DNA of 40,000 bases, from positions 205,434 through 245,433 of the forward strand of contig NZ_JRFE01000017.1 in assembly GCF_000756305.1 (NCBI RefSeq), in the 5' to 3' direction. Below, piece by piece: positions 1-34,441 of this stretch; positions within the stretch are counted from its first letter, which is position 1; every line of letters begins with the position of its first letter. The notes beneath the pieces were generated by a model. That model worked only from the letters and a program-made list of their open reading frames with translations, was not told where the DNA came from and searched no databases. The stretch is from Myxosarcina sp. GI1 (GTDB lineage Bacteria > Cyanobacteriota > Cyanobacteriia > Cyanobacteriales > Xenococcaceae). Both the position numbers and the translations under genes were made by a program.

Positions 1-1494
1 TCCATTTCCAAGTTTCAAAATCGCCTTGTTGACTCTCAAGCTAAGGTAATTCTCACTAACCACAGTCTTTTAGAACGAATTAAGGGCAATATAGCGAGTT
101 ACGTCAAACTATCTCCTAAGTTAGCAGAATTACCTTGGATAGCTAGCGATCGCGTAGAGCTAAATTTAGCTAGCAACTGGCAGCAGCCAAAACTAAACAG
201 CGATACTCTAGCTTTTTTCCAATACACCTCTGGTTCGACAGGAAACCCTAAAGGAGTGATGGTAACTCACGGCAACATCCTGCACAACTCTGAAGTAATC
301 AAACAGGCTTTTCAACATCATCAACAGACCAAAATTTTGATGTGGCTGCCTATGTTTCACGATATGGGCTTAGTAGGTGGTGTAATGCAGCCGTTATACG
401 GAGGCTATCCCGCAGTTTTAATGTCGCCGCTAGCTCTAATTCAACAGCCAGTTTTATGGCTACAGGCTATGTCTCGCTATCAAATTACTACTAGTGGCGG
501 ACCAAACTTTGCTTACGATCTCTTGTGCCAAAAAGTTACTCCCCAACAAAGAGAGACGCTCGATCTCAGCCATTGGGAAGTGGCTTTTTCTGGTGCTGAA
601 ACAGTAAGGGCTGAAACTTTAGCTAAATTTGCCGAACTATACGCTCCCTGTGGTTTTAAGCCAGAGGCTTTTTATCCTTGCTACGGGATGGCAGAAGCAA
701 CTCTATTTATTACGGGAGTCGATAAAACTAAATATCCCCAGGTTTTGTATCTCAGCGAGCCAGATTTAGCCGAAAACAAGGTTGTCTGCGTCGAACCAGA
801 TACAGAACGGGCAAAAGCAGTAGTTAGTTGTGGTTGCCCTTGGTTGGGCGATGAAATTATCATTGTAGATCCAGAAACCTTAACCAGATGTCCGAGCAAT
901 CGCGTCGGCGAAATTTGGGTCAATGGCAGAGGAGTTGCTAAAGGCTACTGGCAGCAGCCAGAAGCAACAGAACGAGACTTTAATGCTCATCTTGCCAACA
1001 ATAAAGAAACAACCTATTTACGCACTGGAGACTTGGGATTTATCCGCGATGGCGAACTCTATATCGTCGGGCGGATCAAAGATGTAATGATTATCTGGGG
1101 TACATATCGCTATCCCCAACACATCGAACAAACGGTTCAAGATGCCCATCCCGCACTAAGAACTAATGCAGGTGCTGCTTTTGCTGTAGAAATTGCGGGA
1201 GAAGAAAGATTGGTTATCGCTAGCGAAGTAGAGAGAACTTTCTTACGGCGTTTACCTGTAGAAGAAATTATAACGGCTATTCGCCAAGCAGTAGGAATAG
1301 AACATACTGTAGATGTCTACACCATACTGTTACTCAAAACGGGCAGCATTCCTAAAACTACCAGCGGGAAAATTCAGCGTCGCGCTTGTCGTCAAGGCTT
1401 TTTAGACGGTACTTTAAACTTAGTAGGTAAGTGGCAACAAAAAGATCTCAGTCAAAGTAATATTACCGACTTGATGCAAAGAATGGCAGAGTAA
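1..1494 (+). CDS. fatty acyl-AMP ligase (FAAL) / AMP-dependent synthetase, 5' end cut by the window edge
   Basis: Frame 1 is open from base 1 with no stop before the listed Met at 256. Adenylation motifs read directly: YTSGSTGNPKGV, YGMAE, YLRTGDLG, GRIKDVMII, SGKIQRR. The context FQYTSGSTGNPKGVMVTHGNILHN is typical of FAALs. No carrier domain follows. Confidence 0.8.
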   Translation, partial: SISKFQNRLVDSQAKVILTNHSLLERIKGNIASYVKLSPKLAELPWIASDRVELNLASNWQQPKLNSDTLAFFQYTSGSTGNPKGVMVTHGNILHNSEVIKQAFQHHQQTKILMWLPMFHDMGLVGGVMQPLYGGYPAVLMSPLALIQQPVLWLQAMSRYQITTSGGPNFAYDLLCQKVTPQQRETLDLSHWEVAFSGAETVRAETLAKFAELYAPCGFKPEAFYPCYGMAEATLFITGVDKTKYPQVLYLSEPDLAENKVVCVEPDTERAKAVVSCGCPWLGDEIIIVDPETLTRCPSNRVGEIWVNGRGVAKGYWQQPEATERDFNAHLANNKETTYLRTGDLGFIRDGELYIVGRIKDVMIIWGTYRYPQHIEQTVQDAHPALRTNAGAAFAVEIAGEERLVIASEVERTFLRRLPVEEIITAIRQAVGIEHTVDVYTILLLKTGSIPKTTSGKIQRRACRQGFLDGTLNLVGKWQQKDLSQSNITDLMQRMAE

Positions 1495-1528
1495 AACAGA
1501 GGTCAAGACAAGAATTAGAGAACAAGCA

Positions 1529-1963
1529 ATGAAAACCGTATCTACTGAAGTTTCAAACGATAAAAAAAGTCTTCGCAGGGAACTATATGCTACTGAAAAT
1601 TATCTTCCTCTTTTAGCTCGTATCTCGCTTTCTGCACTCTTTATTTGGTCGGGTATCAATAAGATTTTGCATCCCATTATCACTCAGCAATATATGTCTG
1701 CTCATGGAATGCCATTGACATCAATCTTTCTCATAGCGGCGATCGCCCTGGAACTTTTAGGGGCATGTTCTCTATTGCTAGGAATTAAACCCCGATGGGG
1801 CGCAACCTTACTAATTATATTTTTAGTTCCCGCTACCTTAATTTTTCATACAAACTTTTCTACCGAACTTCAGCAAGCGATGTTTTTGAAAAATTTAGCA
1901 ATGTTGGGAGGTCTACTAATGGTAATCCAGTATGGAGGGGGAAATATTGCGCTAACGAAATAA
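1529..1963 (+). CDS. DoxX-family small integral membrane protein
   Basis: 144 aa with about four hydrophobic helices. The N-terminal pattern LLARISLSALFIWSGINKILHP resembles the DoxX family. Starts 35 bp after the FAAL stop on the same strand. Confidence 0.6.
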   Translation: MKTVSTEVSNDKKSLRRELYATENYLPLLARISLSALFIWSGINKILHPIITQQYMSAHGMPLTSIFLIAAIALELLGACSLLLGIKPRWGATLLIIFLVPATLIFHTNFSTELQQAMFLKNLAMLGGLLMVIQYGGGNIALTK

Positions 1964-2056
1964 AAGCGATCGCCATAGCTGTATTTCTCGACACTCTTTA
2001 TATTTTGAAATTGATGCTTAAATCTTCGTCAGTGGGTACTTTACCTTTTAAGTGCA

Positions 2057-2308
2057 TTGAAATTTACTGTCGTAATGAAGCAAAATAATAACCGCAAAAG
2101 TCAAAATATTTCAGTAGCAAAAACCTACATCTTTATCTTGATAATGGGGACTATAGGCGCAGTAGTAGGAGCGATCGATAATATGGAAAGTCGAGAGAGT
2201 TCCTCTGAAGAAGTAATAGTTCAAATGGGCATAGGAGCCTGTGGAGGTATGGTTGCTGCGAGTTTTTTAAGCATACCGACAATTTTTTCTAAAAAGAACT
2301 CAAAATAA
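2057..2308 (+). CDS. hypothetical small membrane protein; the start may instead be the Met at 2075
   Basis: 83-aa ORF with two hydrophobic segments (IFILIMGTIGAVVGAI and GIGACGGMVAASFL). No recognisable family, so coding status is uncertain. Confidence 0.3.
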   Translation: MKFTVVMKQNNNRKSQNISVAKTYIFILIMGTIGAVVGAIDNMESRESSSEEVIVQMGIGACGGMVAASFLSIPTIFSKKNSK

Positions 2309-2484
2309 CAAATCTTGTTTTTCTTGATTTAGCAACGCCATAATTTTTAACCAGCTTACGTTTGTTTTCAATTTAGAGAATCGAGTTCTTGTAACTTCTG
2401 CTATTTGTTGGCGATCGCCGCACATTTATCTTCATTTAATATTGTGAGATTATCTTCAATTGTAATTAGTAAACAATACCCCTA

Positions 2485-2526
2485 CTGAGATTGCATCTAA
2501 ACTAAAAAATACAGATCCAATCTCAG
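2485..2526 (+). promoter_or_regulatory. 9-bp inverted repeat (CTGAGATTG...CAATCTCAG) ending 4 nt before the ATG at 2531
   Basis: Read directly: arms at 2485-2493 and 2518-2526, with a 24-nt A-rich loop. It would occlude the ribosome-binding region of the downstream ORF. Confidence 0.3.
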
Positions 2527-2530
2527 TCTT

Positions 2531-2940
<410 letters not shown>

Positions 2941-3100
2941 AATCGCAATGTGTAAAGCGCGATCGCTACAAATTAGAGAATTCAGGTTGTCTCAATGACC
3001 GCGTTCAATATAGCGATCGCATCTTGAAATATTTATAATTTTTGTAACATATTATAAAACACACGATTGATTTCAAGTAGTTTTATGTAGAATACAAATG

Positions 3101-3126
3101 TAGTTAATTAACTGCTTAATTAACTA
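3101..3126. promoter_or_regulatory. perfect palindrome TAGTTAATTAA-CTGC-TTAATTAACTA in the AT-rich region upstream of the repeat-protein gene
   Basis: Arms of 11 bp at 3101-3111 and 3116-3126 are exact reverse complements with a 4-nt spacer. It lies about 290 bp upstream of the ATG at 3415. Candidate dimeric regulator site; function unknown. Confidence 0.25.
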
Positions 3127-3414
3127 GCTCGAAAAAGTATCAAATTGTTAAAAAGCAAAAAAAAAGAAAGCTAAGATCGAATTTATTAGACCAAATCATT
3201 GCTTTTCATCTAATTAGGACATTTAATCCACTTATAAAACAATTCTCTTAATAGCTAATAAAAGGATAAACTTGCTAAAAATTTATTTACAGTGGCTTAA
3301 ATGTGCAAAAAATTTCGATAAATTTGTCGTTGATAAAATTAGTACATAAATTCAAAACTTGGTCGTACTAATCGAAAAAGCTTCTCTTTTTTTTAGACAA
3401 AAAGAGAAGAAAAA

Positions 3415-5040
3415 ATGAAAACCTTATCTCAAACTATCTCTACAAGCATTAATTATGATGCAGATGGCAACATTGATTCTCGCTATTTAAATGTTTACAC
3501 ATTTGATAAAAATAGTAATCAACTAACAAACGTATACGAAGCTGATAACGATGGAGATGGCAATATCGATTATCGTTATTCAACTACTAACACCTACGAC
3601 AAAAAAGGAAATCAACTAACCAGCGTTTCTGAATATGACAATGACGCAGACGGTGACATTGACTCTCGCTATTCAACTACCAATACTTACGATAAACAAG
3701 GCAATCTGTTAACTAGCGTTTCGGAATCTGATTATGATGGGGACAATCTTTCCAATTCTCGCTATTTAACTAAGAATACCTACGATAAACAAGGCAATTT
3801 ACTAACTACCATTTCAGAATCTGATAATGATGGTGATGGTAATATTGACTCTTTGTATTCAACTAAGAATACCTACGATAAACAAGGCAATCTGCTAACT
3901 AGCATTTCGGAATCTGATAGTGATGGAGACGGCAATATTGACTCTTTGTATTCAACTAAGAATACCTACAACAAAAAGGGAAATCAACTAACCAGCATTT
4001 CTGAATATGACAATGACGCAGACGGTGACATTGACTCTCGCTACTCAAACACCAGCACCTACGACAAAAAGGGAAATCGACTGACCAGCGTTTATGAATC
4101 TGATTACGATGGCGATGGTAATATTGACTCTTTGTATTCAACTACCAATACCTACGATAAACGAGGCAATCAACTAACCAGCATTTATGAATCTGATTAT
4201 GATGGAGACGGTCTACTTAATTATCGTTCTTCAACCACCAGTACCTACAACAAACGTGGCAATTTGCTGAGTAGCGTTTACGAATATGACGATGGTGCAG
4301 ATGGTAGCATTAATTCTCGTTCTTCAACTACCAATACCTACGATAAACGAGGTAATCAATTAAGTAGTGTTTATGAATCCGATTACGATGGCGATGGTCT
4401 TTTTGATTATCGTAATTCAACTACCAATACCTACGATAAACGGCGCAATCTGCTAACTAGCATTTCGGAATCTGATAGTGATGGAGACGGCAATATTGAC
4501 TCTTTGTATTCAACTACCAATACCTACGATAAACAAGGTAATCAATTAAGTAGCGTTTATGAATCCGATTACGATGGCGATGGTCTTTTTAATTATCGTA
4601 ATTCAACTACCAATACCTACGATAAACGGGGCAATCAACTAACTACCATTTCAGAATCTGATAACGATGGTGATGGTAATATTGATTCTTTGTATTCAAC
4701 TACCAACACCTACAATAAACGAGGTAATTTGCTAACTAGCGTTTCTGAGTCCGATTACGATGGAGACGGTAACATTGATTATCGCTATTCAACCACGAAT
4801 ACCTATGACAAATGGGGCAATCAACTAACTAGCGTTTACGAAGCTGATTATGATGGAGATGGCAACATTGATTATCGTCAAGAAACACTTTATGAATACT
4901 TAGATAAAAGTAAATATATAGCTGGTGTTTCTGATAACGAACTTGTAGTTGCTTTTGATAATCCGAGCAATTCTCAAATTCATCTCTTGAGTGAAGAATC
5001 AACTTTCTTAATTTCTTCAGAATTAACGCAGTTGTTTTGA
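3415..5040 (+). CDS. tandem-repeat protein: fourteen full 31-aa repeats plus partial copies at each end, combining a DxDxDG Ca-loop-like motif with a YD/Rhs-like motif
   Basis: 541-aa ORF. Repeat consensus is ESDxDGDGNIDSxYSTTNTYDKxGNxLTSxx. There is no obvious N-terminal signal peptide and the last ~50 aa are unique. Codon-level divergence between repeats argues for a real coding sequence. Confidence 0.75.
   Translation: MKTLSQTISTSINYDADGNIDSRYLNVYTFDKNSNQLTNVYEADNDGDGNIDYRYSTTNTYDKKGNQLTSVSEYDNDADGDIDSRYSTTNTYDKQGNLLTSVSESDYDGDNLSNSRYLTKNTYDKQGNLLTTISESDNDGDGNIDSLYSTKNTYDKQGNLLTSISESDSDGDGNIDSLYSTKNTYNKKGNQLTSISEYDNDADGDIDSRYSNTSTYDKKGNRLTSVYESDYDGDGNIDSLYSTTNTYDKRGNQLTSIYESDYDGDGLLNYRSSTTSTYNKRGNLLSSVYEYDDGADGSINSRSSTTNTYDKRGNQLSSVYESDYDGDGLFDYRNSTTNTYDKRRNLLTSISESDSDGDGNIDSLYSTTNTYDKQGNQLSSVYESDYDGDGLFNYRNSTTNTYDKRGNQLTTISESDNDGDGNIDSLYSTTNTYNKRGNLLTSVSESDYDGDGNIDYRYSTTNTYDKWGNQLTSVYEADYDGDGNIDYRQETLYEYLDKSKYIAGVSDNELVVAFDNPSNSQIHLLSEESTFLISSELTQLF
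3451..4878 (+). repeat. 93-bp tandem repeat array inside the CDS
   Basis: The period of 93 nt (31 codons) is read from the translation. A 72-nt stretch is identical at 3887-3958 and 4445-4516, an offset of 558 nt or 6 x 93. Confidence 0.9.
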
Positions 5041-5077
5041 CGGCGCTAACTAATAAGTTAATTAAAAGCTAGGTATT

Positions 5078-5117
5078 GCGGCGTTTTTTGCCAAATGCAC
5101 TTAACGCCGCTTGTTTT
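5078..5117 (+). terminator. candidate intrinsic terminator of the repeat-protein gene
   Basis: GCGGCGTT (5078-5085) pairs with AACGCCGC (5103-5110) and is followed by TTGTTTT. The 17-nt loop is larger than ideal. Confidence 0.45.
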
Positions 5118-5292
5118 AATAATTAAAAAATATAACAGAGAGAAACGGCAGTGAAATTTTATCGATTAAATCAATAAAATTTCTGAAGATTTTAAGAGTG
5201 TAAAATTAGATTTTTTACTTTGACTACTTTTGACTGGCAATAAAAAGCTAAATGGTTTTTGATATAACCAAATCAAATTGAACAAGACAATC

Positions 5293-5461
5293 ATGTCAAA
5301 TTCTATCGATGTAAATGATAACAACATCGTTTTCACTTTTAAAAAAACAGAAATATACCTTCAAAGAATTGCTAAAAGAAACAAATAGTAAGAATTTTGA
5401 TAAAGAATACGATCGCGAAGAACCAGTAGGTGAAGAAGTTTGGTGGCAAAAATTTTTCTAA
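5293..5461 (+). pseudogene. decayed MazE/AbrB-type antitoxin remnant, frameshifted at an A7 run, with no toxin partner
   Basis: Frame 1 (5293-5388) reads MSNSIDVNDNNIVFTFKK. Frame 2 continues KQKYTFKELLKETNSKNFDKEYDREEPVGEEVWWQKFF to the stop at 5459-5461. The two join if one A is removed from the A7 run at 5341-5347. The joined sequence parallels the E. coli MazE C-terminal half ([48 protein letters not shown], from memory). The N-terminal AbrB-fold part is missing, with an in-frame TGA upstream. Confidence 0.4.
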
Positions 5462-5474
5462 GCAAAAATTTACT

Positions 5475-6875
5475 CTACTCTCTTTGCATTTTAGAGCCTA
5501 AAAACAGACTCGCCACAGCATAAACTAAAAATCCTATTGCCATCCCTGGTAAAACTTCGTACATCGCACCTGATAAGCCTAAAACCGATTTCCAAACTAA
5601 AGCACCTGCAATTCCTGCTATCATTACGGCGATCGCCACAGGTGTAGTTATCGGTTTTTCAAACACTCGTATAATCAATAAAACTCCCAAACCAGAAGCC
5701 AAAATCGACCAGGCGAAGGTAATTAGATTAAATACGCTGTCGTTATTAATTAGCGCGATCGCTAAAACAATAGCCGTAACTATTAAAGTGCCAATTTTAG
5801 CGTAGCGATAGGATTTAGCCAACCCTGGGAACAAATCTTGAGTTAAAGCTGCCGAACAGGATAAGATTTGCGAATCGGCAGTAGAAATAGTTGCCGCAAA
5901 CAAACCCGCTAGCATTACTCCTACCAAAACTCCTGGTAATAAGTCTACAGAGAGATCGAGTAGTGCTAATTCTGGATCGTTAATATTTGGTAACAAGACT
6001 CTACCTGTCAAACCAATAGCTATAGCCGTAAAAGCGGTGATTATGCCGCAAATAGTCCTAATATCTCGCGCTTTGCCCATATTATTAGCAGAATCGATCG
6101 CCATTGCCCGAACTAAAATATGAGGTTGTCCCACCGCGCCAAATCCTGCTATCAGCCAGCCGATGAAAAAGGGCAAAAATCCCCAGGCCAAATCGGAAGG
6201 AAATAAGCTGACCAGATTTGCATCTATCTGTCCTAAATTGCTATATATATTTGCAACTCCACCGCCTTCTACAATAGTCACCACAAACAAAATCAGCAAC
6301 GCAGCGATCATCACTATCGTCTGCACGGCATCAGTCCAAATCGAGGCGCGAATTCCGCCAGAAAAGCAGTAAGCGACGACAACAACCGCGCCAATAATAA
6401 TTCCCCAAGAGTAATTCCAACCAAACAGGCTGTTGAGGGCTTTACTTCCTGCCAGTAGTTGCGCTGCGGCATACGAACCCAAAAAAGCAATGGTAATTAA
6501 AGCCGAAACAATCGCAATCCAGCGATAGCCCTGCTGTTTCTGTGCCAGAAAAGCAGGAACGGTTTCTGAATTAGAAGTTTCAGAAACTAGGCGCAATCGT
6601 TTAAAAACCAGTAGCCAAGAGAAATAATCGCCAATTGCCCAACCTATCGCCAACCAAATCGCCGATAAACCCTGAGTATAGGCATATCCTACCTGTCCCG
6701 TAAACAAAAAGGCACTTTGACCAGTCGACAGTGCTGATAGTGCCACCAGCCAGGGATTGACCTTTCTGCCAGCTAGTAAATAGTCAGCAGTTGTATCTTG
6801 CTTTTGAGTTACCGAGTAGATACCCACTACGGTAAACAACAGCAAAAAAGCGATAAAAGTAAGAGCGATCGACAT
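5475..6875 (-). CDS. sodium:solute symporter (SSF) family transporter
   Basis: 466 aa, very hydrophobic with about 12-13 helices. The N-terminal pattern DYLLAGRKVNPWLVALSALSTGQSAFLFTGQ is typical of PutP/PanF-type SSF proteins. Substrate cannot be deduced. Confidence 0.75.
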   Translation of the reverse strand: MSIALTFIAFLLLFTVVGIYSVTQKQDTTADYLLAGRKVNPWLVALSALSTGQSAFLFTGQVGYAYTQGLSAIWLAIGWAIGDYFSWLLVFKRLRLVSETSNSETVPAFLAQKQQGYRWIAIVSALITIAFLGSYAAAQLLAGSKALNSLFGWNYSWGIIIGAVVVVAYCFSGGIRASIWTDAVQTIVMIAALLILFVVTIVEGGGVANIYSNLGQIDANLVSLFPSDLAWGFLPFFIGWLIAGFGAVGQPHILVRAMAIDSANNMGKARDIRTICGIITAFTAIAIGLTGRVLLPNINDPELALLDLSVDLLPGVLVGVMLAGLFAATISTADSQILSCSAALTQDLFPGLAKSYRYAKIGTLIVTAIVLAIALINNDSVFNLITFAWSILASGLGVLLIIRVFEKPITTPVAIAVMIAGIAGALVWKSVLGLSGAMYEVLPGMAIGFLVYAVASLFLGSKMQRE

Positions 6876-6884
6876 TGTTAGAAA

Positions 6885-6926
6885 GGAAGAAGGAAGAGGG
6901 AAGAGGGAAGAGGGAAGAGGGAAGAA
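6885..6926. repeat. heptamer tandem repeat (GGAAGAG)n, six units; CTCTTCC on the coding strand of the symporter leader
   Basis: Read directly: GGAAGAA, then GGAAGAG four times, then GGAAGAA. The array starts 10 nt upstream of the symporter ATG at 6875. Confidence 0.9.
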
Positions 6927-6995
6927 GATGTTGTAGCTTAATTTAACAACTATTTTCTTCTTTCTTATTTTCTTGTCTCACAACGAGTTAATGGT

Positions 6996-8048
6996 TTACT
7001 GTTTGCTAAATTCCATACCCGAAAGACTATTATCGGTTTTGATTACTTTTTCTAATTTAAAACCGCTTTGCTCGAACAACTCTTGAAATTGCTTTTTGGT
7101 ACGCCAGCCACCGCCAGGAGTAGCGACGTTAATTTGTACGGCAAAAATCCCAGGCATAATGCCATCGGCTTCCACTTTAGGTTCGTCGATATCGGGAACA
7201 AAAGACTGTAATAAAATTACTCTACCGTGTGCTGGTAGGGCGCGTTTGCAGTTTTCCAAAATTTTTAAAGCGTCTTCATCGTTCCAAGCCGAGATAAAGT
7301 GCTTCATGACAATCGCATCCGCACCTTGAGGTATTTCCTCAAACACATCTCCTACTTTAATTTCAATGGCATCGGGATCTAGTCCCTGCTTGGCAATATA
7401 AGCTTTAGCGGTTTCTGCTACATAAGGCACGTCGAATAAAATTCCCTTGCAGCCATAACGCTTGACAATGTGAGAAATTAATCCACCCTGTCCGCCACCG
7501 ACATCCATAACCGTATCGTATTGGCTAAAGTCATAGGCATCGAGCAAACCGCCGACTTGCGAATTAGTTAAAAAGCTCATCGCCTTAATAAAGGTGTCGC
7601 CACTCCATTCATTATCGCGACAATAGTCGTAAACTCCTTTGCCGTTGGCGAGTTCAAAAGGAACTACCCCTTGCTTTAAACCTTCTGGCAAACTTCGCCA
7701 GGCATCCCACTGGGCGGGTTCGATGAGGTGCATTGCCAAATGTCCTGCCGAAGGTTCTTTATTAGTTACCAATAAGGACGATACTTCCGTAGGTGCGAAA
7801 ACTCTTTCTGGCTTTTCTTCTAGAACGTCGACATGAGCTAAGGCGCGGAGAATAAAGTAAAGTCTTTCTGCATTAGTATCGGTTTTGCTAGCCAGACTTT
7901 CTACGCTTTGTTCTCCTTCATTGTCAAGGATATTGAAGATACCCAAGCGAGTAGCGACATAAAGACATTTGCTTTTAACAAAAGTTAACATTAAATCGAA
8001 AACTTTTTGTTTGGCTGCGGTTTTGGAGTTAGATACAGTCGATACCAT
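6996..8048 (-). CDS. class I SAM-dependent O-methyltransferase, COMT/Methyltransf_2 type
   Basis: 350 aa. A helical N-terminal third of ~100 aa looks like a dimerisation region. The SAM motif VMDVGGGQGG is followed by FDVP, GDVFE and MKHFISAWNDED, as in plant and bacterial small-molecule O-MTs. Confidence 0.7.
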   Translation of the reverse strand: MVSTVSNSKTAAKQKVFDLMLTFVKSKCLYVATRLGIFNILDNEGEQSVESLASKTDTNAERLYFILRALAHVDVLEEKPERVFAPTEVSSLLVTNKEPSAGHLAMHLIEPAQWDAWRSLPEGLKQGVVPFELANGKGVYDYCRDNEWSGDTFIKAMSFLTNSQVGGLLDAYDFSQYDTVMDVGGGQGGLISHIVKRYGCKGILFDVPYVAETAKAYIAKQGLDPDAIEIKVGDVFEEIPQGADAIVMKHFISAWNDEDALKILENCKRALPAHGRVILLQSFVPDIDEPKVEADGIMPGIFAVQINVATPGGGWRTKKQFQELFEQSGFKLEKVIKTDNSLSGMEFSKQ

Positions 8049-8059
8049 TATTTATTTTT

Positions 8060-8087
8060 GTTAGTAGTTAGTAGTTAATAGTTAGTA
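8060..8087. repeat. heptamer tandem repeat (GTTAGTA)n, four units
   Basis: Read directly: GTTAGTA GTTAGTA GTTAATA GTTAGTA. It sits 12 nt upstream of the O-MT ATG at 8048, in the mysC to O-MT spacer. Confidence 0.85.
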
Positions 8088-8149
8088 GTCAAGCAACAGT
8101 TCAACCATCGACTTAAAAATTATTTCGTTTTAACCTTGTTTGACAAAAT

Positions 8150-9511
8150 TTAGTCTCCGCCTAGTTCGACTAATTTACCGATGTTAAAGTCAATTTTGAC
8201 CCAACCTTTGAGGCGGCGGAGGTTATCTAAAAGTAACAGGGGAATCTGCCAGTTATGAAGCATTAAGAAAGGCAACGGATCGTCTAGATCTAAAATTGCG
8301 TCCGTACCCGTCGTCACTTTATGCCACCAGGCTTTTAGTTCGGACAAAGAGCTTATTCCAGTCAGTCGCCACAACTCATGATATGTCCAGTAGGTTGGTT
8401 TGCTGTCAGGTAAGGGAGTAATCGGTTCTTCTCCAGGTTCGCCATCAGTCAAATAAGCTTTAGCTACTCCAGGATGGTCGTGAAACATGGTAATAGCCGA
8501 ATGCAGACGGGGATTGCACTCAATGGGATAAACCTTGCCATCTGCTGCTTGAATTACGTCAAAACAAACCTGTCCTGTTAAGTTGAGTTCGCTGACAAAC
8601 TTTTCTACCCACTGATAGATAGCGGGGTTATCTACTTGTTGGTAATTGATTTGAAAGGGAGAAGATTCGGAACAGCAGTGCAGTCTAATTTTGCCATTGC
8701 GTACGGTAGCGTGAAAGCAATATTCTTTACCGCGAATAAACTCTTGCATTACCCAAGGTTTATCTTCACTAATAGGTAAGTTTCTAACAAAACCTTCCAT
8801 TCCCTCAAAGGGCAATCTAGTTAGATCGAGGCGCAGCACCGAATCGTAAGGAATACTTTTAAGAATATATCTGCTACCATCGCTGTCAAAATCAAAATCG
8901 AGAATCTGTTGCGGATCGCTAATGCGAAATACTTTAGGTGCGGACAAACCAAGTTCGCGAGCTTTAGAACAAAAGGCATATTTGTCATCCAAAATCTCGG
9001 TTAATTCTGGATCGAGATGAATGGCTTGGCAATATGGTTCTAAAGTTTTTTTGGCTAAAGAATCGTAATAACTAGCGATGGGGCTGGAAACGGGAATAAA
9101 CAGATCGATATTATTTTGTTTGACTATTTTTAGTAATGCCTGACAATAGCCTTCTGGGTCTTGTTCGGGCACTGGTACAGTATAAAAGCCTTTAACCGCA
9201 CGTGAAAAGCGATGTCCCGACAGCCAATATTTATGGGTTTCGACTAAAAATACTGCGTGTCCGTCGCGATGAAAAAAGCGGGCTAGCTGTAAGGCTTTAG
9301 TCATCTTGGCACCAGTAATCAAAATTCTTTTCTTCTCGTTAGTGCCAATGTTTCTGCGGCGAAACGGAGTGGTAAAGATACTCCAAATTAAAGATAAAAA
9401 AACTACTGCTAGATTAAAGGGAAGTAAGAGTAATAATAAGAACAAAGTGCCAAGGTTCTTGACTATTGCCGAAGCTGTCCCCTGTCCCGAAACAAATAGT
9501 ATTTGTGCCAT
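8150..9511 (-). CDS. mysC: ATP-grasp ligase MysC (4-deoxygadusol + glycine gives mycosporine-glycine)
   Basis: 453 aa. Shared features with my recollection of Anabaena variabilis Ava_3856: N-terminal hydrophobic segment, then ILITGAKMTKALQLARFFH...HKYWLSGHRFS...YILKSIPYDSV..., and the C-terminus LRRLKGWVKIDFNIGKLVELGGD. Lies downstream of mysA and mysB. Confidence 0.85.
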   Translation of the reverse strand: MAQILFVSGQGTASAIVKNLGTLFLLLLLLPFNLAVVFLSLIWSIFTTPFRRRNIGTNEKKRILITGAKMTKALQLARFFHRDGHAVFLVETHKYWLSGHRFSRAVKGFYTVPVPEQDPEGYCQALLKIVKQNNIDLFIPVSSPIASYYDSLAKKTLEPYCQAIHLDPELTEILDDKYAFCSKARELGLSAPKVFRISDPQQILDFDFDSDGSRYILKSIPYDSVLRLDLTRLPFEGMEGFVRNLPISEDKPWVMQEFIRGKEYCFHATVRNGKIRLHCCSESSPFQINYQQVDNPAIYQWVEKFVSELNLTGQVCFDVIQAADGKVYPIECNPRLHSAITMFHDHPGVAKAYLTDGEPGEEPITPLPDSKPTYWTYHELWRLTGISSLSELKAWWHKVTTGTDAILDLDDPLPFLMLHNWQIPLLLLDNLRRLKGWVKIDFNIGKLVELGGD

Positions 9512-9677
9512 ATTTTTAACAAAATAGGAAGCAGAAAGTAAAGAGCAGGATAAAGAGAGCGGATTTTTTTCTGTTACCCTGGCTCTTTATTTTGTGGTAC
9601 TTACCAACGGTCAGAGCAGGCTCTGTCAATCGCTGAAGCAATTCGCCTTCGCATTGCGAAGTCGGCGGAGTAATCTC

Positions 9678-10508
9678 TTACTTGCGTTTGATGATGGTCA
9701 ATCCGTCACGCAAAGGAATCATGACTTGTTCGACACGCGGATCTTCAGCGACAAAACGATTAAAACGAGCGATCGCTTTGCCGTTAGTGGTTTGCTTGTC
9801 TGCTGATAGATATGGTTGTCCTTGCAGTAGGGTATTGTCTACGCAGATAAAACCATCGGGAGCGAGCAATTTGGTATCTAAGAGCAGACGAAAATAGTCG
9901 ATATATTCGCTTTTATCTGCATCTATAAACACTAAATCAAATGACTCACCTCTTTCTAGCAATTGCTGCATGGTTTCTAAGGCTGGTGCTACCTCGACCT
10001 TAATCTTTTCTCCATGAGGAGAAGCAGCAAAGCAGTCGATCGCAAATTTTGCTACATAGTCGTCAACTTCACAAGCTACTACATAACCATCATCAGGGAG
10101 AGCTTCAGCGATCGCCAGAGCGGAATAGCCCGTAAACATCCCTACTTCTAAGACGCGTTTGGATTTGGTAAGGGATACCAGCATTTTCAGCATTTGCCCC
10201 TCAATATGTCCCGACAGCATCTCTTGTTCTAAAGCGCGTACCGTCGCACCGTCACTAAAGTGTTTGCTCCAGTCCTCTTGTTGAGTTTTCTGAGATAAGT
10301 TAGCTAAAGCTTCAGATTCGGGAGTAGTGCAGTCTTCCAGATAGGGGTCGATACCTGCGGCTAGATGATATGCTTGGATTAAGGATGTCTTGAGTTCGGT
10401 GGAAACCGTTTCGGTTTCTGCTAACTTGAGGATTTGTTCTAGCTGCTGGACGAGAATTCCTAAAGGAGTAACTGGTCTAGCAGTTTTTTTTGCTGCTGTA
10501 CTCACCAC
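9678..10508 (-). CDS. mysB: cation-dependent (catechol-OMT-like) O-methyltransferase MysB
   Basis: 276 aa with a GTG start 2 nt after the mysA stop. ARPVTPLGIL...AAGIDPYLE.CTTPES...LEQEMLSGHIEGQ.LKM...FDLVFIDADK..Y...LLAPDGFICVDNTLLQG...RDGLTII matches recalled Ava_3857. Confidence 0.85.
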   Translation of the reverse strand: MVSTAAKKTARPVTPLGILVQQLEQILKLAETETVSTELKTSLIQAYHLAAGIDPYLEDCTTPESEALANLSQKTQQEDWSKHFSDGATVRALEQEMLSGHIEGQMLKMLVSLTKSKRVLEVGMFTGYSALAIAEALPDDGYVVACEVDDYVAKFAIDCFAASPHGEKIKVEVAPALETMQQLLERGESFDLVFIDADKSEYIDYFRLLLDTKLLAPDGFICVDNTLLQGQPYLSADKQTTNGKAIARFNRFVAEDPRVEQVMIPLRDGLTIIKRK

Positions 10509-10510
10509 AA

Positions 10511-11755
10511 TTAAATGCTCCCTGCTAATTCTAATTCTGCATCTTCTTTACCTTCGTTCATGTACACTTGCGTACCTAACCCTGCATCGGGATAGTCAGC
10601 GCAAATGCGTCTGTGTTCGGCTAAGGCTTCTTCTAACTCTTCTTTAGACAGATCGTTAATAAAGTAACAAGTACCAATGGGTTTTGGTACTGCCGCTCTC
10701 AACAAACCATCTCTAGTTTGAGTTATCGACTCGCTGGCTTTCCACAACAGATCGATGTCTAATAAGGGATTGTCTAAAGCCAAACCAATATTATTCATTG
10801 TCTGGAGGATGCGATCGCGTTCTGCTTCGGTAATATAGCCGCGTCTTGCTGCGATCGTAGCCGACAGTGCCATGTCGATATTAACCGCATGACCGTGATA
10901 TAAAGGTACTTCGGGAGTAAGCTCTACAGTAGGACTCCAGGTATGTCCGTAAGCAATTACCCGATCTAAATCGAGTTCGTGTAAGTTAGGTGCTTCCAAC
11001 TCCAGCATTTTTTTAATTGCTTTGTAGGTTACTTTGCGTCCGATTTCTTTAATCTCTTCATCACCATTGAGATAGCCAAAGCGAGTCTCTAGTAGTCGTT
11101 TGCCATATTTTTCCAATAGCTCGAATACTTCATTATGAGAGACTACGGCAATCTTGACTAACTCTGCCATACCGTTACGTACCTGAGCGGTAGGTAAGGT
11201 GCGTAAGAAAGAAAAGTCTAAGATTACTTGCTTCGAGGCATGATAAGCACCGAGGCGATTTTTGAGTTTTTTGTGGTTGACTGCCACTTTAATGGCAACG
11301 CTGGCATCCACCAAACCTATCATGGTTGTAGGAATGCGAATATAGTTGCTGCTACGACGATATGCCGCACAGGCAAAACCCGCTACGTCGGTAATCAAAC
11401 CACCGCCAACTACCAAAACTGGCTCTTTACGTACCAAACCAAAATCGGCAAAAGCATCGACAATTTTTTCTAATGTCCGCATACTTTTATCGAGTTCGGT
11501 AATGATGATGGGGAATACCTTTAGTTCGATGTCGTAATGCTGAAAGTAAGCATCGATCTCTTTTTTATAGAGCTGATACACGTTGGCATCTACTACCATT
11601 AAACAGCGTCCGAACTTACGATAGCTTTCGGCTATTTCCGTATTTTCTACTTTGAATACTCCTTCTACAAACAGAAGATCGTACTCAATCTTTTCATAAC
11701 CTTCTACGCGAAAGTTATTGTCTGTAGCTACAAACTTGGCTTCAATTTGACTCAT
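10511..11755 (-). CDS. mysA: demethyl-4-deoxygadusol synthase (sedoheptulose-7-phosphate cyclase, DHQS-like) MysA
   Basis: 414 aa. [90 protein letters not shown] and [14 protein letters not shown] closely match my memory of Ava_3858. Confidence 0.85.
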
Positions 11756-12278
11756 TACTTTCTCGAAATAAACACAACTAAACTTACTACAAAATTATTT
11801 TGCAGATTTAACTTTCACTAGCGTGCTTGCGTAGATTTTATTTGCTGTAGTCGTAACAATAAATACATTGTTTCAACATAGGTACAAATTTTTGCGGCAT
11901 TAAAAATATAACCATTAGCATTAATGGCAATATCTCTGACTGCATATCTAGCAGCTCGCTGGTTTCCAATTTTTAGCCGAGCGTTTTTCCCTGCGACACA
12001 TAAATATGGGGGTTGCCTGGCTAAATTTTAAAAAATAATTATCCTCAAAAAAGTACTGTTGTTAAGCTTTTTAGCTTGTTAAATTTTTCGATCCCGATAT
12101 ATTTAAGCATATTTCCCTTACCATGAGTATCTGCACATAGTCATAGTTGAAAAAAATACTCCTCGAGTTAAGACTAATCATTTAATCGGCTAAAAGCTTG
12201 GGAAAAAAATGACTTACTTTTGTTGATTTACTATTTTATTAAAGCAAGTTTACACAATAGAGTCTATCACTAATTATT

Positions 12279-12307
12279 AAAAAAATGTAAAAAAATGTAA
12301 AAAAAAT
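12279..12307. repeat. short direct repeat AAAAAATGTA x2 in the long spacer upstream of mysA
   Basis: Read directly (taaaaaaatgtaaaaaaatgtaaaaaaaatcc). Confidence 0.6.
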
Positions 12308-12564
12308 CCTTATATTCGAATTTTTGCTTAATATTTATCTCAAGTCAGTTGACAAATATTCAAAAACATTATAAAAAACTTTTTTTATAAAAGCGAGGCG
12401 AACAGAATAACTGAGATCGAATGGTAACAGAGCGCTCTTTAACTCAAATGCAAACACCACTAACCACTAAAGTATTAAAGTAAGCCTAATGCCTATAGTT
12501 AAATTAAGTTAAGATTGACTTATTTATCTATTCTTTAAAATCTTTAAAAAATAAAAATATCAAA

Positions 12565-12610
12565 AGGCGTGTTTGACAATCAAGCGAGGGCTAGAGAGAA
12601 AAACACACCT
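12565..12610. terminator. hairpin with T-rich flanks on both strands; candidate terminator for the GH57 gene
   Basis: AGGCGTGTTT (12565-12574) pairs with AAACACACCT (12601-12610) at 9 of 10 positions, with a 26-nt loop. T-runs follow on both strands. It lies 40 nt downstream of the GH57 stop. Confidence 0.4.
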
Positions 12611-12649
12611 CATATTTTTATTTATTGCTATTACCAGCTAAAAAGCAGG

Positions 12650-15062: not shown

Positions 15063-15941
15063 ATGAGTATAAAACAATCGATCGCAGGAACCACCCAACT
15101 GTTAGGAGTAATTGGCGATCCAGTCAAACATTCTTGTTCGCCAGTAATGCACAATGCGGCGATCGCGCAGTTGGGATTGGACTATGTTTATCTACCTCTA
15201 CCAGTAAAAGCAATAGATTTACAGACAGCATTAGCAGGATTTGCGGCGATCGATCTAGTTGGGTTTAATATCACTATTCCCCACAAAACAGCAGTGATGC
15301 CTTTGCTCTATGAAATCTCTCCTACTGCTAAAAAAGTAGGTGCGGTTAATACCGTCTGGCGTACTGAAACAGGTTGGAGCGGTACCAATACCGATGTCAC
15401 TGGCTTTATCGCTCCTTTAAAAGCTATGTCGCGAGATTGGAGCAATGTTAATCCTGTAGTTATAGGTAATGGCGGTGCGGCTAGAGCGGTAATAGTAGGT
15501 CTTGCAGAACTCGGTTGCCCAGAAATTCACGTCGTGGGGCGCAATTATCAAAAATTGGCGCAATTTTATCAAAGTTGGCAGAATATACCCGAAATTAGTT
15601 CTATTTTAAAAATTCATTACTTAGATAATTTAAATATTTTAATTCCTGCTGCCGATCTGTTGATTAACACAACACCAGTAGGTATGTCTCCTAATGTAGA
15701 TAATTCACCCGTAGATGCTATAGCAATGAAGAAGTTAAAACCAGATGCGATCGCCTACGACCTGATTTATAATCCTAGTCCGACCAAGTTTTTACAGCTT
15801 GCCAAAGATAATGGTGCAGTTTCGATCGATGGGCTAGAAATGCTGGTTATGCAAGGAGCGGCAGCTTTAGAGATTTGGCTACAGCAACCCGTACCAGTAG
15901 AAGTGATGCGCCAGACACTGAGAGAGGCGATTTATTCGTAG
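15063..15941 (+). CDS. aroE: shikimate dehydrogenase
   Basis: 292 aa. GVIGDPVKHSCSPVMHNAA, FNITIPHK, AVNT..., GTNTDVTGF and VIGNGGAARA form the typical AroE motif order. Confidence 0.85.
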   Translation: MSIKQSIAGTTQLLGVIGDPVKHSCSPVMHNAAIAQLGLDYVYLPLPVKAIDLQTALAGFAAIDLVGFNITIPHKTAVMPLLYEISPTAKKVGAVNTVWRTETGWSGTNTDVTGFIAPLKAMSRDWSNVNPVVIGNGGAARAVIVGLAELGCPEIHVVGRNYQKLAQFYQSWQNIPEISSILKIHYLDNLNILIPAADLLINTTPVGMSPNVDNSPVDAIAMKKLKPDAIAYDLIYNPSPTKFLQLAKDNGAVSIDGLEMLVMQGAAALEIWLQQPVPVEVMRQTLREAIYS

Positions 15942-16176: not shown

Positions 16177-16710
16177 TTAAACGGAAAAGCGATCGCAAAC
16201 ACAACCCCAATTCGCTGGATATCTGCCTCGTTTTACCCAGCGATCAAAGCTAGAATATTGCCACAAATGAGGACAAGAAACCAATTTATGTTTGACGGGA
16301 TTATTATGAATGTAATCTAAATGTTTTTGCAGATCTGTTTCATCGGCGATCGCATGTTCCCAAAACCTACGTTGCCAGACATCACTTTCGCGATGTTTGT
16401 GACGAGATGCCGAAAGTTCGAGATTTGAAAAGTTTTTAGCTTTGTAAGCACGAGTAAATAAAACTTTCATTCTCGATATTCGTTGAGAATAATCAGCATC
16501 GTCAGGAGGTAATTGCCACAGGAAATGTAGATGGTCTGGCAAAATTACCGCCGCTAATATTTTGAAAGGTTTTTTATCCTTAATTTTAGCGATTGCCATA
16601 CGTAAAATTTCAATGTTTTGAGGATCTTTAAACAAAGGTCGGCGACAATAAGTAACTATAGTAAAGAAATAGGTGCCACCTGGAATATACAGTCTTCGAT
16701 AGTTGGGCAT
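16177..16710 (-). CDS. REP-associated tyrosine transposase (RAYT; IS200/Y1 HUH family)
   Basis: 177 aa. Has the HUH motif LPDHLHFLW and a catalytic-Tyr region LDYIHNNPVKHKL, and begins RRLYIPGGTYFFT, typical of TnpA-REP proteins. Confidence 0.8.
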   Translation of the reverse strand: MPNYRRLYIPGGTYFFTIVTYCRRPLFKDPQNIEILRMAIAKIKDKKPFKILAAVILPDHLHFLWQLPPDDADYSQRISRMKVLFTRAYKAKNFSNLELSASRHKHRESDVWQRRFWEHAIADETDLQKHLDYIHNNPVKHKLVSCPHLWQYSSFDRWVKRGRYPANWGCVCDRFSV

Positions 16711-31905: not shown

Positions 31906-33168
31906 ATGGCTCAGTCTCTCGACCCAACAAAGTTTAATATCGCTCTGTTAGGTTTGGGAGGGATTCTGTTCCTTTACGGATTGCTGTCTCGCTATATTAA
32001 AGAGCGACTTTATCTTTCTGCTCCTATTCTCGCTGTCTGTTTGGGAATCGTTTTGGGACCCATTTTTAATATTTTTAATCCCCAACAATGGGCAACCAGA
32101 GAACTAATTTTTGAAGAAATCACTCGTCTGGCAATCGCGATTCAGCTTGTTTCTACTGCTCTCCGTTTGGAAAAAGCTTATCCCTTGCATCGCTGGCGTA
32201 GTTTGGCGATTTTGCTCGGTCCTTTAATGCTGGCAATGTGGGCAGTCAGTAGCTTACTAATATATTGGTTTCTGGGGGTAGATCTTTGGGTCGCGCTCCT
32301 CATGGGTGCAGCGATCGCCCCCACCGACCCAGTTTTAGCCTCAACCATCGTTACTGGTAAATTTGCCGAAAAGCACCTTCCTTCAAGAGTTCGCAATCTC
32401 CTGGCTGCTGAGTCTGGATTGAATGATGGTTTAGCCTATCCCTTTGTTTTTTTACCCCTGCTTATTCTTATTCCATCTCATCCCAATCCTATCGTTCATT
32501 GGCTTACTGTTACTTTGCTTTGGGATGTGGGAGCAGCGATAATTTTTGGCTTACTTATTGGTTATCTGGCAGCCAAATTTTTGCAATGGGGACAGCGCAA
32601 GAAAACGATGGACAAACAGTCTTTTTTAGCGTACGTGGTTGCTTTGACTTTGATTGTTTTAGGGGGAATTAAATTAATTGGCAGTGACGGCATTTTAGCT
32701 GTCTTTATGGCAGGGGTGGGTTTTGACCTGGTTATCAAAGCGTCAGATCGCTTACAAGAAGAAAATGTCCAAGATGCCTTCGATCTGATTACTACTACAG
32801 TAACCTTTACTCTGTTTGGTTTGTTTTTACCGTGGCAAGAATGGCTATCTATCGGTTGGCAAGGATTAGCTCTGGTGGTAGCAATTTTGTTGCTGCGTCG
32901 CCTTCCAGCTTTCTTGCTTCTCAATCGCTTTATTCCCCATACTCAAGGATATAAAGATGCCCTCTTTATGGGTTGGTTTGGTCCGATTGGCGTTGCAGCA
33001 ATTTTCTACGCTAACCTGGCCGCACATGAAACTGGTATAGATCTGATATGGTACTTTACTAGTCTGATTGTTATGGGTTCTGTTATCGTTCATGGTATCA
33101 CTGCTGCACCTTTCTCGGTGCTGTACGAACAACACTCTGAGCCGCATTCTTTTGAAAATCGACAATAG
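31906..33168 (+). CDS. Na+/H+ antiporter (CPA1, NhaP-type)
   Basis: 420 aa, polytopic. AIAPTDPVLA and ESGLNDG are the hallmark CPA1 motifs. Confidence 0.75.
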   Translation: MAQSLDPTKFNIALLGLGGILFLYGLLSRYIKERLYLSAPILAVCLGIVLGPIFNIFNPQQWATRELIFEEITRLAIAIQLVSTALRLEKAYPLHRWRSLAILLGPLMLAMWAVSSLLIYWFLGVDLWVALLMGAAIAPTDPVLASTIVTGKFAEKHLPSRVRNLLAAESGLNDGLAYPFVFLPLLILIPSHPNPIVHWLTVTLLWDVGAAIIFGLLIGYLAAKFLQWGQRKKTMDKQSFLAYVVALTLIVLGGIKLIGSDGILAVFMAGVGFDLVIKASDRLQEENVQDAFDLITTTVTFTLFGLFLPWQEWLSIGWQGLALVVAILLLRRLPAFLLLNRFIPHTQGYKDALFMGWFGPIGVAAIFYANLAAHETGIDLIWYFTSLIVMGSVIVHGITAAPFSVLYEQHSEPHSFENRQ

Positions 33169-34326: not shown

Positions 34327-34441
34327 ATCTCCATCGATAAAATATTAACTCAGACAAAAAATGCAGCGATGGCGATCGATTAACGTTTGCTCCCCTATTA
34401 GTTATATAGTTGATAGTTGGTTGTTTGTAAGTCGCTTGTCA

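Follow-up and report, generated by a model that had tools for sequence, protein, structure and literature searches.

A five-gene locus on the minus strand of a 40,000-nt stretch of DNA from Myxosarcina sp. GI1 (contig NZ_JRFE01000017.1; the whole stretch is referred to below as the window, and positions are window positions unless a locus number precedes them) is read here, with moderate confidence, as the mycosporine cluster of this cyanobacterium, carrying a module for tailoring and transport after mysC. The five open reading frames (ORFs) run head to tail at 5475-11755 in the order mysA, mysB, mysC, a gene for a MysF-like methyltransferase (mysF below), and a gene for an SSF symporter, and the gaps between them, from mysA toward SSF, are 2, 166, 101, and 120 nt. 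The membership of the last two genes in the cluster rests on synteny, and the functions proposed for them are putative. Cyanobacteria and algae have mycosporine-like amino acids (MAAs) as their main small-molecule UV sunscreens, and these compounds are in development as natural sunscreen ingredients. The features of the locus are as follows.

10511-11755, minus strand: mysA, encoding a DDGS of 414 aa (Pfam DHQ_synthase and DHQS_C; structure-homolog scores)
9678-10508, minus strand: mysB, encoding a cation-dependent CCoAOMT/catechol-type O-methyltransferase of 276 aa (Pfam Methyltransf_3, PF01596, E value of 3e-52)
8150-9511, minus strand: mysC, encoding an ATP-grasp ligase of 453 aa (NCBIfam NF005315)
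9371-9460, minus strand: hydrophobic N-terminal segment of MysC, residues 18-47, KNLGTLFLLLLLLPFNLAVVFLSLIWSIFT (Kyte-Doolittle values and a conserved motif)
6996-8048, minus strand: gene for a MysF-family S-adenosylmethionine (SAM)-dependent methyltransferase of 350 aa (Pfam Methyltransf_2 and dimerisation domain)
7485-7505, minus strand: SAM-binding motif I, DVGGGQG, residues 182-188 of the MysF-like protein (alignment to solved homologs)
7290-7292, minus strand: Ser253 codon at the position of the COMT catalytic His, HDW being replaced by SAW (alignment to four solved homologs)
5475-6875, minus strand: gene for an SSF Na+/solute symporter, PutP/PanF-like, 466 aa (Pfam SSF)
11756-12649, minus strand: intergenic region upstream of mysA, a probable promoter region inferred from sigma-70-like consensus matches
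8049-8149, minus strand: mysC-mysF spacer, with one promoter-like match at 8146-8119

An initial annotation, made from the sequence alone, had placed the five genes and named their products, and coordinates, strand, and gaps were all confirmed, as were the gene identities, including that of the cyclase as DDGS rather than EEVS or DHQS, by structure scores and by Pfam and NCBIfam profiles. It had also attached the second methyltransferase and the symporter to the mys genes, and comparative evidence bears this out. A scan with the MysF-like methyltransferase, restricted to one genome per species, yielded 49 loci with 62 to 83% identity, and upstream neighbors were counted over the 45 loci with at least 1.5 kb of upstream sequence. 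The gene immediately upstream is mysC in 37 of these 45 species-level loci, and the spacer between the two genes is often just 0 to 40 bp. The mysC-linked loci span Pleurocapsales, Phormidesmis/Leptolyngbya, Coleofasciculaceae, and Gloeocapsa(-opsis). In Synechococcus sp. PCC 7335, the order is cyclase-mysB-mysC-mysF followed by a CNT transporter gene, and Gloeocapsa sp. PCC 7428 (L055:6567-11056, CP003646) has cyclase-mysB-mysC-mysF flanked by GH1, glycosyltransferase, and GH65-HAD genes. The arrangement is not a product of chance, given that dozens of species share this gene order. In some genomes, MysF-clade genes stand alone.

The symporter gene is linked to the mys genes in a similar way. 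Of the 37 mysC-linked loci, 18 have, within 10 kb, an SSF gene whose product is 77 to 81% identical to that of the window, and SSF orthologs (67 to 81% identity) join mys clusters in three independent arrangements. In the first, found in the window and in many Pleurocapsales, SSF follows mysF. In the second, found in Phormidesmis-type clusters, SSF lies upstream of the cyclase gene, in the order SSF-cyclase-mysB-mysC-mysF-CNT. In the third, found in Coleofasciculus chthonoplastes, a gene for a 466-aa SSF protein (67% identical) stands between mysC and a nonribosomal peptide synthetase (NRPS) gene, and mysF is convergent. A derived arrangement, in which SSF directly follows mysC after the loss of mysF, occurs in Pleurocapsa sp. 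PCC 7319 and Hyella patelloides.

The MysF-like enzymes are paired with other transporters as well. Genes for SSF, CNT, BT1/MFS, EamA/DMT, and, in convergent orientation, BenE proteins follow MysF-family genes, representing four or five unrelated families, most of which carry small carboxylate or amino-acid-type solutes. The Aetokthonos cluster (L061), for instance, has the order mysA-B-C-EamA-mysD-(PhyH)-mysF-EamA-TauD-NRPS. In the Phormidesmis/PCC 7335-type clusters, a multisubunit Na+/H+ antiporter operon of the Mnh type was observed directly upstream of SSF or the cyclase gene (L015, L016, L022, L024, and L030, at about 1-3300; L052:999-4872), a neighborhood that could result from a link with Na+-driven transport or from nothing more than common ancestry.

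In some Nostocales, MysF-like genes occur in another setting. A four-gene set without mysABC nearby, consisting of genes for TauD, a MysF-like protein (70% identical to that of the window), BT1/MFS, and a GH32/43-like glycosidase, was seen in Scytonema sp. NUACC21 (L054:9244-13641), L037, L048 (Tolypothrix), and L036. The Scytonema/Tolypothrix TauD protein was considered as a MysI ortholog and rejected, as it was undetected by MysI at an E value of 1e-5.

That mysD and mysE are missing from the 40-kb window, as reported in the initial annotation, was corroborated by Pfam searches and tblastn. Pfam scans of all window ORFs of at least 100 aa found no MysD, MysE, MysH, or MysI, that is, no D-Ala-D-Ala-ligase-like, NRPS, PhyH, or TauD protein. 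When the window was searched by tblastn with reference MysD, MysH, MysI, and MysE sequences taken from Aetokthonos and Nostoc UHCC 0926, the only matches were PurD and an AMP-binding gene at 1-1494. PurD (34361-35704), a housekeeping protein of the ATP-grasp superfamily, was rejected as a hidden MysD, given its full GARS_N/GARS_A/GARS_C architecture and about 23% identity to MysD. The AMP-binding ORF (1-1494, plus strand), which extends beyond the left edge of the window, was likewise rejected as a truncated MysE; it encodes a fatty-acyl-AMP ligase (FAAL) without carrier or thioesterase domains and shares just 25 to 28% generic adenylation-domain similarity with MysE. No mysD remnant was found 3' of SSF (5041-5474) at E values of up to 10.

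From this absence, it had been concluded that the locus should stop at mycosporine-glycine and then proceed differently, by a further methylation and/or transport. A replacement of the second ligase by the methyltransferase and symporter does not follow, since there are relatives having both. The order in L005 and L023 is mysB-mysC-mysF-SSF-mysD, with mysD directly after SSF; the product of this last gene is 43% identical to the reference MysD and, like the reference, scores far below the cut-offs of genuine Ddl models. Coleofasciculus has mysABC-SSF-NRPS with mysF alongside, and Aetokthonos has MysF together with MysD. With mysD following the symporter gene in two relatives, the module is no hallmark of a pathway ending at mycosporine-glycine. 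The two genes are thus an optional accessory, present with or without a second ligase, and are no replacement for MysD or MysE. GI1 is best read as a mysD-less variant of its lineage rather than as the bearer of a different pathway logic. Since there is no second ligase within the 40 kb, the expected GI1 product is a mono-substituted, possibly methylated mycosporine. Across the 49 loci of the scan, no MysI, MysH, or MysE homolog was detected, and no TauD/MysI, PhyH/MysH, or NRPS gene lies within 10 kb at any of the 37 mysC-linked loci, just two of which have mysD.

The three core enzymes are of the expected types. MysA scores 656 bits against PDB entry 5TPR, the Anabaena DDGS Ava_3858; 261 bits against 4P53, the EEVS ValA; and at most 116 bits against any DHQS. 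It also falls under the equivalog cut-off of aroB (192.8 versus 305 bits), and these scores assign the cyclase of the window to the DDGS type rather than to EEVS or DHQS. MysA is 68% identical to the MysA of the canonical Aetokthonos cluster and 87 to 88% identical to those of the Waterburya loci. A divergent DDGS-like cyclase (about 37% identical to the window MysA; 247 bits to 5TPR) was observed in the Phormidesmis/PCC 7335-type clusters, at L014:5509-7302, at L052:5410-7260 (Synechococcus sp. PCC 7335), and at 14 other loci; its N terminus is extended by about 190 conserved aa (e.g., GISxCRSLRSCLNFSL) without a Pfam match.

The mysB gene starts with GTG 2 nt past the mysA stop codon. The N terminus of MysB aligns from residue 1, the 2-nt mysA-mysB spacing is also found in L003, L008, L009, and L010, and the protein is 67% identical to the Aetokthonos MysB. 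MysC matches NF005315 with 531.6 bits, over the cut-off of 406, and is 62% identical to the MysC proteins of Aetokthonos and Coleofasciculus and 80% identical to that of PCC 7335. The profile match spans residues 58-449, so that the hydrophobic segment at residues 18-47 (best 19-residue Kyte-Doolittle mean, 2.7) lies outside it; the motif GTLxLLLLLLPFNL in this segment is kept in 31 of 34 related MysC ORFs. A conserved hydrophobic N-terminal segment outside the profile suggests a membrane-anchored ligase, and MysC is probably tethered in this way.

The fourth gene had been described as encoding a second, unrelated O-methyltransferase. The protein does belong to a COMT-type Methyltransf_2 family distinct from that of MysB (PF00891, E value of 1.3e-37; dimerisation domain PF08100, E value of 3e-16), but this family had already been named MysF (PMC10510106). 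In a protein search of a plasmid collection, plasmid pn1 of Nostoc sp. UHCC 0926 came far ahead of the other matches, and the ORFs at the pn1 site reproduce the published layout of pseudo-mysC, mysF, mysI, and mysE (Table S6). The window protein and the MysF of Nostoc sp. UHCC 0926 (PQG02_36115) are both 350 aa long and share 54% identity over 339 aa (E value of 9e-136). The name MysF comes from Arsin et al. (2023), who predicted, without showing it, an N-methylation of palythine and described the gene only from mysF-mysI-mysE triads, which occurred in 8 of 75 complete genomes (PMC10510106). The same study noted the pseudo-mysC upstream of mysF in Nostoc UHCC 0926 (PMC10510106). In a neighbor-joining tree, the window protein falls in a tight mysC-linked clade; the sister clade comprises proteins of Nostocales and Coleofasciculaceae from TauD-(MysF-like)-BT1/MFS-GH32/43 contexts without mysABC, with the published MysF forming a distant outgroup.

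The assignment as an O-methyltransferase holds in part, since the SAM fold and dimerisation domain are those of the COMT class but the catalytic His is an invariant Ser. The closest solved homologs belong to the COMT/DnrK class, namely CalO6, MmcR, and AlpH (PDB entries 4Z2Y, 3GWZ, and 8H3T), with 150 to 160 bits. The SAM motif DVGGGQG is intact and aligns with the DvGGGxG of CalO6, AlpH, MmcR, and 6C5B. At the catalytic position, these four homologs have HDW and the window protein has SAW (Ser253), and a Ser occurs there, within the motif SAW or SVF, in 254 of 254 family members from both clades. The invariant Ser argues against a classical His-base mechanism acting on a phenolic hydroxyl, and judging from the alignments, the enzyme is perhaps no O-methyltransferase of the kind represented by COMT. 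With the His base replaced, the acceptor would more probably be a nitrogen, or an enol or carboxylate oxygen that is ionised already, than a hydroxyl requiring deprotonation. Loss of the base would be compatible with palythine N-methylation, of which it proves nothing. Database names for these proteins include 'hydroxyneurosporene methyltransferase'.

The symporter is a full-length member of the SSF family (PF00474, E value of 2.5e-63, residues 32-421) and exceeds the cut-off of TIGR00813 (198.6 versus 184 bits). It is 100% identical to a Myxosarcina sp. GI1 protein named 'sodium/proline symporter' at NCBI. A true PutP was rejected at the equivalog level (TIGR02121, 295.3 versus 515.5 bits), and the scores against the PutP model NF011948 (179.9 versus 955 bits) and against PanF (193 versus 328 bits) also lie below the cut-offs, although PutP and PanF are its best NCBIfam matches. 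The best solved homolog is SGLT1, which at 47 bits is too distant for a comparison of binding sites. The family is a large one, 2065 proteins matching at E values of 1e-100 or less.

Gene loss in the relatives shows which parts of the cluster are kept. The mysA gene is missing from many Pleurocapsales loci, where remnants lie upstream of an intact mysB; these were seen at L060:5368-5658 (Pleurocapsa sp. PCC 7319), L046:4506-4628, and L006:3052-3273. The PCC 7319 remnant is a 96-aa ORF in which MysA residues 1-52 run straight into residues 350-414. The median ratio of nonsynonymous to synonymous substitution rates (dN/dS) is 0.05 to 0.09 for mysB, mysC, mysF, and SSF, the same with and without mysA, and is lowest for mysF (about 0.05; about 0.08 to 0.09 for SSF), although these figures are approximate since dS is near saturation. 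They point to strong purifying selection on mysB, mysC, mysF, and SSF even where mysA has been deleted, and the deletion of mysA from loci whose other mys genes are under such selection implies a cyclitol precursor from another source.

Signals of expression in the locus are compatible with more than one mode of transcription. None of the three spacers contains a terminator-like site, all four matches falling within coding regions, which would be compatible with a single transcript, possibly with an internal promoter, and is evidence for neither. The sigma-70-like matches upstream of mysA, at 12301-12273, 12065-12038, and 11930-11903 on the minus strand, are consensus matches only, and promoter-like matches barely exceed the shuffled expectation (26 versus 16.9 ± 4.5). 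For RNA elements and riboswitches, there was no Rfam match in the window at gathering thresholds.

A pathway consistent with these assignments can be proposed. By analogy with characterised orthologs, MysA would cyclise sedoheptulose-7-phosphate, MysB would O-methylate the MysA product to give 4-deoxygadusol, and MysC would add glycine to 4-deoxygadusol to give mycosporine-glycine. The MysF-like enzyme would most likely transfer one methyl group onto the MysABC mycosporine (or onto 4-deoxygadusol), for a product heavier by 14 Da. The symporter would most likely use the Na+ gradient to bring in a mycosporine-like or amino-acid-like solute, with recapture or uptake of mycosporines as its probable purpose and a supply of glycine as a less likely one.

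Several observations weigh against a cluster with a dedicated tailoring and transport module. The mysF gene has been lost in PCC 7319 (mysB-mysC-SSF) and in Hyella patelloides LEGE 07179, where the order is mysB-mysC-[mysF remnant]-SSF-GNAT-mysD (L063) and the remnant, at L063:7133-7225, covers 31 N-terminal residues (52% identity, E value of 4e-5). The SSF gene is unlinked to mys genes in some mysF genomes (L058 and L059), so the SSF-mys link is frequent and not obligatory. Unrelated genes are inserted between mysF and SSF in several Waterburya genomes, and the two genes therefore need not be co-transcribed; the insertions comprise a pilin-like gene, a gene for an Mrr restriction endonuclease, and an ORF of unassigned family (L009:11145-12263, L010:11161-12081, and L002:11185-12120). 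A promoter-like match also precedes mysF in the window itself, where co-transcription is putative. The direction of transport is inconsistent across contexts, because SSF proteins are importers and EamA proteins are usually exporters. The sole published proposal for MysF, palythine N-methylation (PMC10510106), involves a substrate that the GI1 cluster alone cannot make. Finally, the one chemical hint for this cluster type is an unassigned peak at 325 to 330 nm in extracts of Gloeocapsa sp. BRSZ (PMC12967839), whose cluster the literature describes, as it does that of its relative PCC 7428, as MysA-MysB-MysC; this peak mismatches mycosporine-glycine (310 nm).

The alternative that survives best takes up the published proposal. 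In this case, the enzyme would carry out a MysF-type N-methylation of a palythine-type imine or amine, leading to aplysiapalythine-type products, and the window would hold part of a discontiguous pathway whose second ligase and dioxygenase lie elsewhere in GI1. The 54% full-length identity to MysF and the family-wide Ser signature speak for it, as do the missing catalytic His, which would suit N-methylation, the documented existence of discontiguous mys pathways (PMC10510106), and the mysD that adjoins the module in some relatives. Nevertheless, the near-complete lack of second-ligase and dioxygenase genes around the 37 mysC-linked loci, the position of the window protein in a clade far from the published MysF, and the report that Pleurocapsales outside Hyella lack mysD and mysE (Jung et al., PMC8472315) make it unlikely, and the published function of MysF is itself just a prediction. 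Most of the family members found sit in clusters unable to make palythine, which suggests that the published role does not tell everything.

The deletion of mysA raises a second alternative, salvage. Here SSF would take up a mycosporine, or else a 4-deoxygadusol- or gadusol-like cyclitol precursor, from a host or the environment for conversion or re-tailoring by MysB, MysC, and MysF, with de novo synthesis through MysA being optional. The in-place deletions in many Pleurocapsales (the L060, L046, and L006 remnants; see also PMC8472315) and the intact, constrained mysB, mysC, mysF, and SSF of these lineages favor it. So do the transporters beside MysF-type genes, which belong mostly to uptake families (SSF, CNT, BT1, and BenE), the Nostocales MysF-like genes found with a transporter and a glycoside hydrolase but no mysABC, and the association of GI1 with a sponge (PMC4510999). 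Against it, GI1 itself has an intact DDGS, the mysA-less strains have other mysA-like or DHQS homologs (PMC8472315), and the account given in PMC10666671 includes a shikimate-derived route to 4-deoxygadusol proposed by Pope et al. (2015). A literature search found no cyanobacterial mycosporine uptake system, and the EamA-type neighbors are usually exporters. Salvage is considered improbable.

A broader form of this idea, which is held as doubtfully as salvage itself, is that the MysF-like enzyme and its transporter form a dedicated module for mycosporine trafficking and salvage, acting either by the import of a mycosporine or its cyclitol core, taken from the community or a host, and its re-tailoring or by a methylation that controls retention or export. 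Such a module would explain the purifying selection on mysB-mysC-mysF-SSF in mysA-deleted Pleurocapsales, the pairing of MysF with four or five unrelated transporter families, and the Nostocales TauD-MysF-transporter-glycosidase sets without mysABC. If this is true, microbial sunscreens would have their first described system of transport or exchange; to our knowledge, no MAA transporter has been described.

It is very unlikely that the cluster ends at mycosporine-glycine and that the methyltransferase and symporter have unrelated jobs, such as proline uptake and the methylation of another small molecule. The NCBI name of the symporter, the size of the SSF family and its occasional lack of linkage to mys genes, the solitary MysF-clade genes of some genomes, and names such as 'hydroxyneurosporene methyltransferase' would all fit, but the database names are generic family-level transfers. 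Against this reading, mysC adjoins the methyltransferase gene in 37 of 45 loci from several orders of cyanobacteria, SSF enters mys clusters through three independent junction types, and a pseudo-mysC lies upstream of mysF in Nostoc UHCC 0926 (PMC10510106). Least credible is an activation of mycosporine-glycine by O-methylation of its C1 vinylogous-acid oxygen, followed by substitution with ammonia or an amine to an imino-type chromophore without MysD or MysE: the BRSZ peak at 325 to 330 nm rather than 310 nm from a strain described as MysABC-only (PMC12967839), the mysF directly after mysC in its relative PCC 7428, and the fact that an ionised enol oxygen requires no His base are in its favor, but it is speculative chemistry for which MAA biosynthesis offers no precedent, the BRSZ peak is unassigned, and the activation would be redundant where MysF co-occurs with MysD or MysE, as in several clusters.

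The reading of the locus as a mycosporine cluster with an accessory tailoring and transport module after mysC is therefore retained. The initial annotation had gone further and proposed an undescribed branch of MAA biosynthesis, a claim overtaken by the literature, in which the layout is already present (Jung et al. 2021; Shimura et al. 2015; Geraldes et al. 2023). Jung et al. (2021) reported that the Pleurocapsales mys clusters, including that of GI1, lack mysD and mysE except in Hyella and 'may produce distinct MAAs'; mysA, in their comparison of Pleurocapsales, is kept by GI1 and Stanieria alone (PMC8472315). They mentioned a 'transporter' only for Hyella patelloides (PMC8472315), which belongs to the same SSF lineage as the window symporter (79% identity). 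Leptolyngbya sp. NIES-2104 has a mysABC-only genome, for which mycosporine-glycine was predicted (Shimura et al. 2015, PMC4675709). In Brasilonema, mysABC occurs with genes for a methyltransferase, a transporter, a dioxygenase, and an NRPS, and palythine was detected (Geraldes et al. 2023, PMC9918943); this transporter is probably not a window-type SSF, judging from the analogous Aetokthonos cluster, which has EamA/DMT. A 2023 review lists methyltransferases among the uncharacterised tailoring genes (PMC10666671). What is added here, and reported in none of these papers, is a clade of MysF-like proteins linked to mysC, a lineage of SSF symporters, the replacement of His by Ser as a family signature, and the pairing of methyltransferase and transporter. 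A literature search found no MAA chemistry for PCC 7335 or Myxosarcina GI1. The locus type bears on two gaps, the products of clusters without mysD and mysE and the movement or retention of MAAs, and because it occurs in culturable strains (GI1, PCC 7335, and PCC 7428), the question can be answered by routine assays.

The remaining genes of the window are of the housekeeping kind and include those for GH57, aroE, an IS200-like transposase, sucrose synthase, kinases, OTCase, trpF, and purD. Upstream of mysA, aroE (15063-15941) lies at a distance of 3.3 kb and the IS200-like transposase gene (16177-16710, minus strand) at 4.4 kb. Directly downstream of the symporter gene, on the opposite strand, is an ORF of 541 aa (3415-5040, plus strand) with no Pfam match at 1e-5. 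It contains a repeat array at 3517-4877, with 14.6 tandem copies of a 93-bp (31-aa) unit, 74% matches, and the motif ...STTNTYDKxGNxLTSVSESDYDGDGNIDSRY.... A DoxX gene follows the FAAL gene at the left edge. The most extreme AT skew of the window, -0.251 at 32001-33000, falls inside a Na+/H+ exchanger gene (31906-33168).

Compared with known systems, the two accessory proteins each combine a familiar fold with a distinctive feature. The dimerisation domain and SAM motifs of CalO6, MmcR, and AlpH are common to the window methyltransferase, but their HDW catalytic motif is not. The MysF of Nostoc sp. UHCC 0926 resembles it more closely, with the same fold, length, Ser signature, and ancestral link to mysC; however, the published MysF always adjoins MysI (TauD) and a Gly- or Pro-type MysE, whereas the window protein adjoins mysC and a symporter. 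PutP and PanF share a full-length SSF family match with the window symporter, which in contrast stays below both equivalog cut-offs and belongs to a lineage repeatedly embedded in mys clusters.

At the level of the cluster, the Pleurocapsales loci of Jung et al. and the mysABC-only cluster of NIES-2104 are of the same type as the window locus, which is itself among those of Jung et al., with mysD and mysE missing and a mono-substituted or 'distinct' MAA as the expected product, and the second methyltransferase is undiscussed there. The Brasilonema/Aetokthonos-type cluster is like that of the window in that mysABC is extended by a MysF-family methyltransferase gene with a transporter gene right after it, but the Aetokthonos transporter is EamA/DMT rather than SSF, and a dioxygenase and an NRPS then follow, unlike in the window. 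The clusters of Anabaena variabilis (Ava_3858-3855; mysABC with the NRPS-like MysE) and Nostoc punctiforme (NpR5600-NpF5597; mysABC with MysD) have the same mysA-mysB-mysC order and orientation as the GI1 locus, in which, unlike in these two, there is no fourth ligase gene and mysC is followed instead by the genes for the MysF-like methyltransferase and the SSF symporter.

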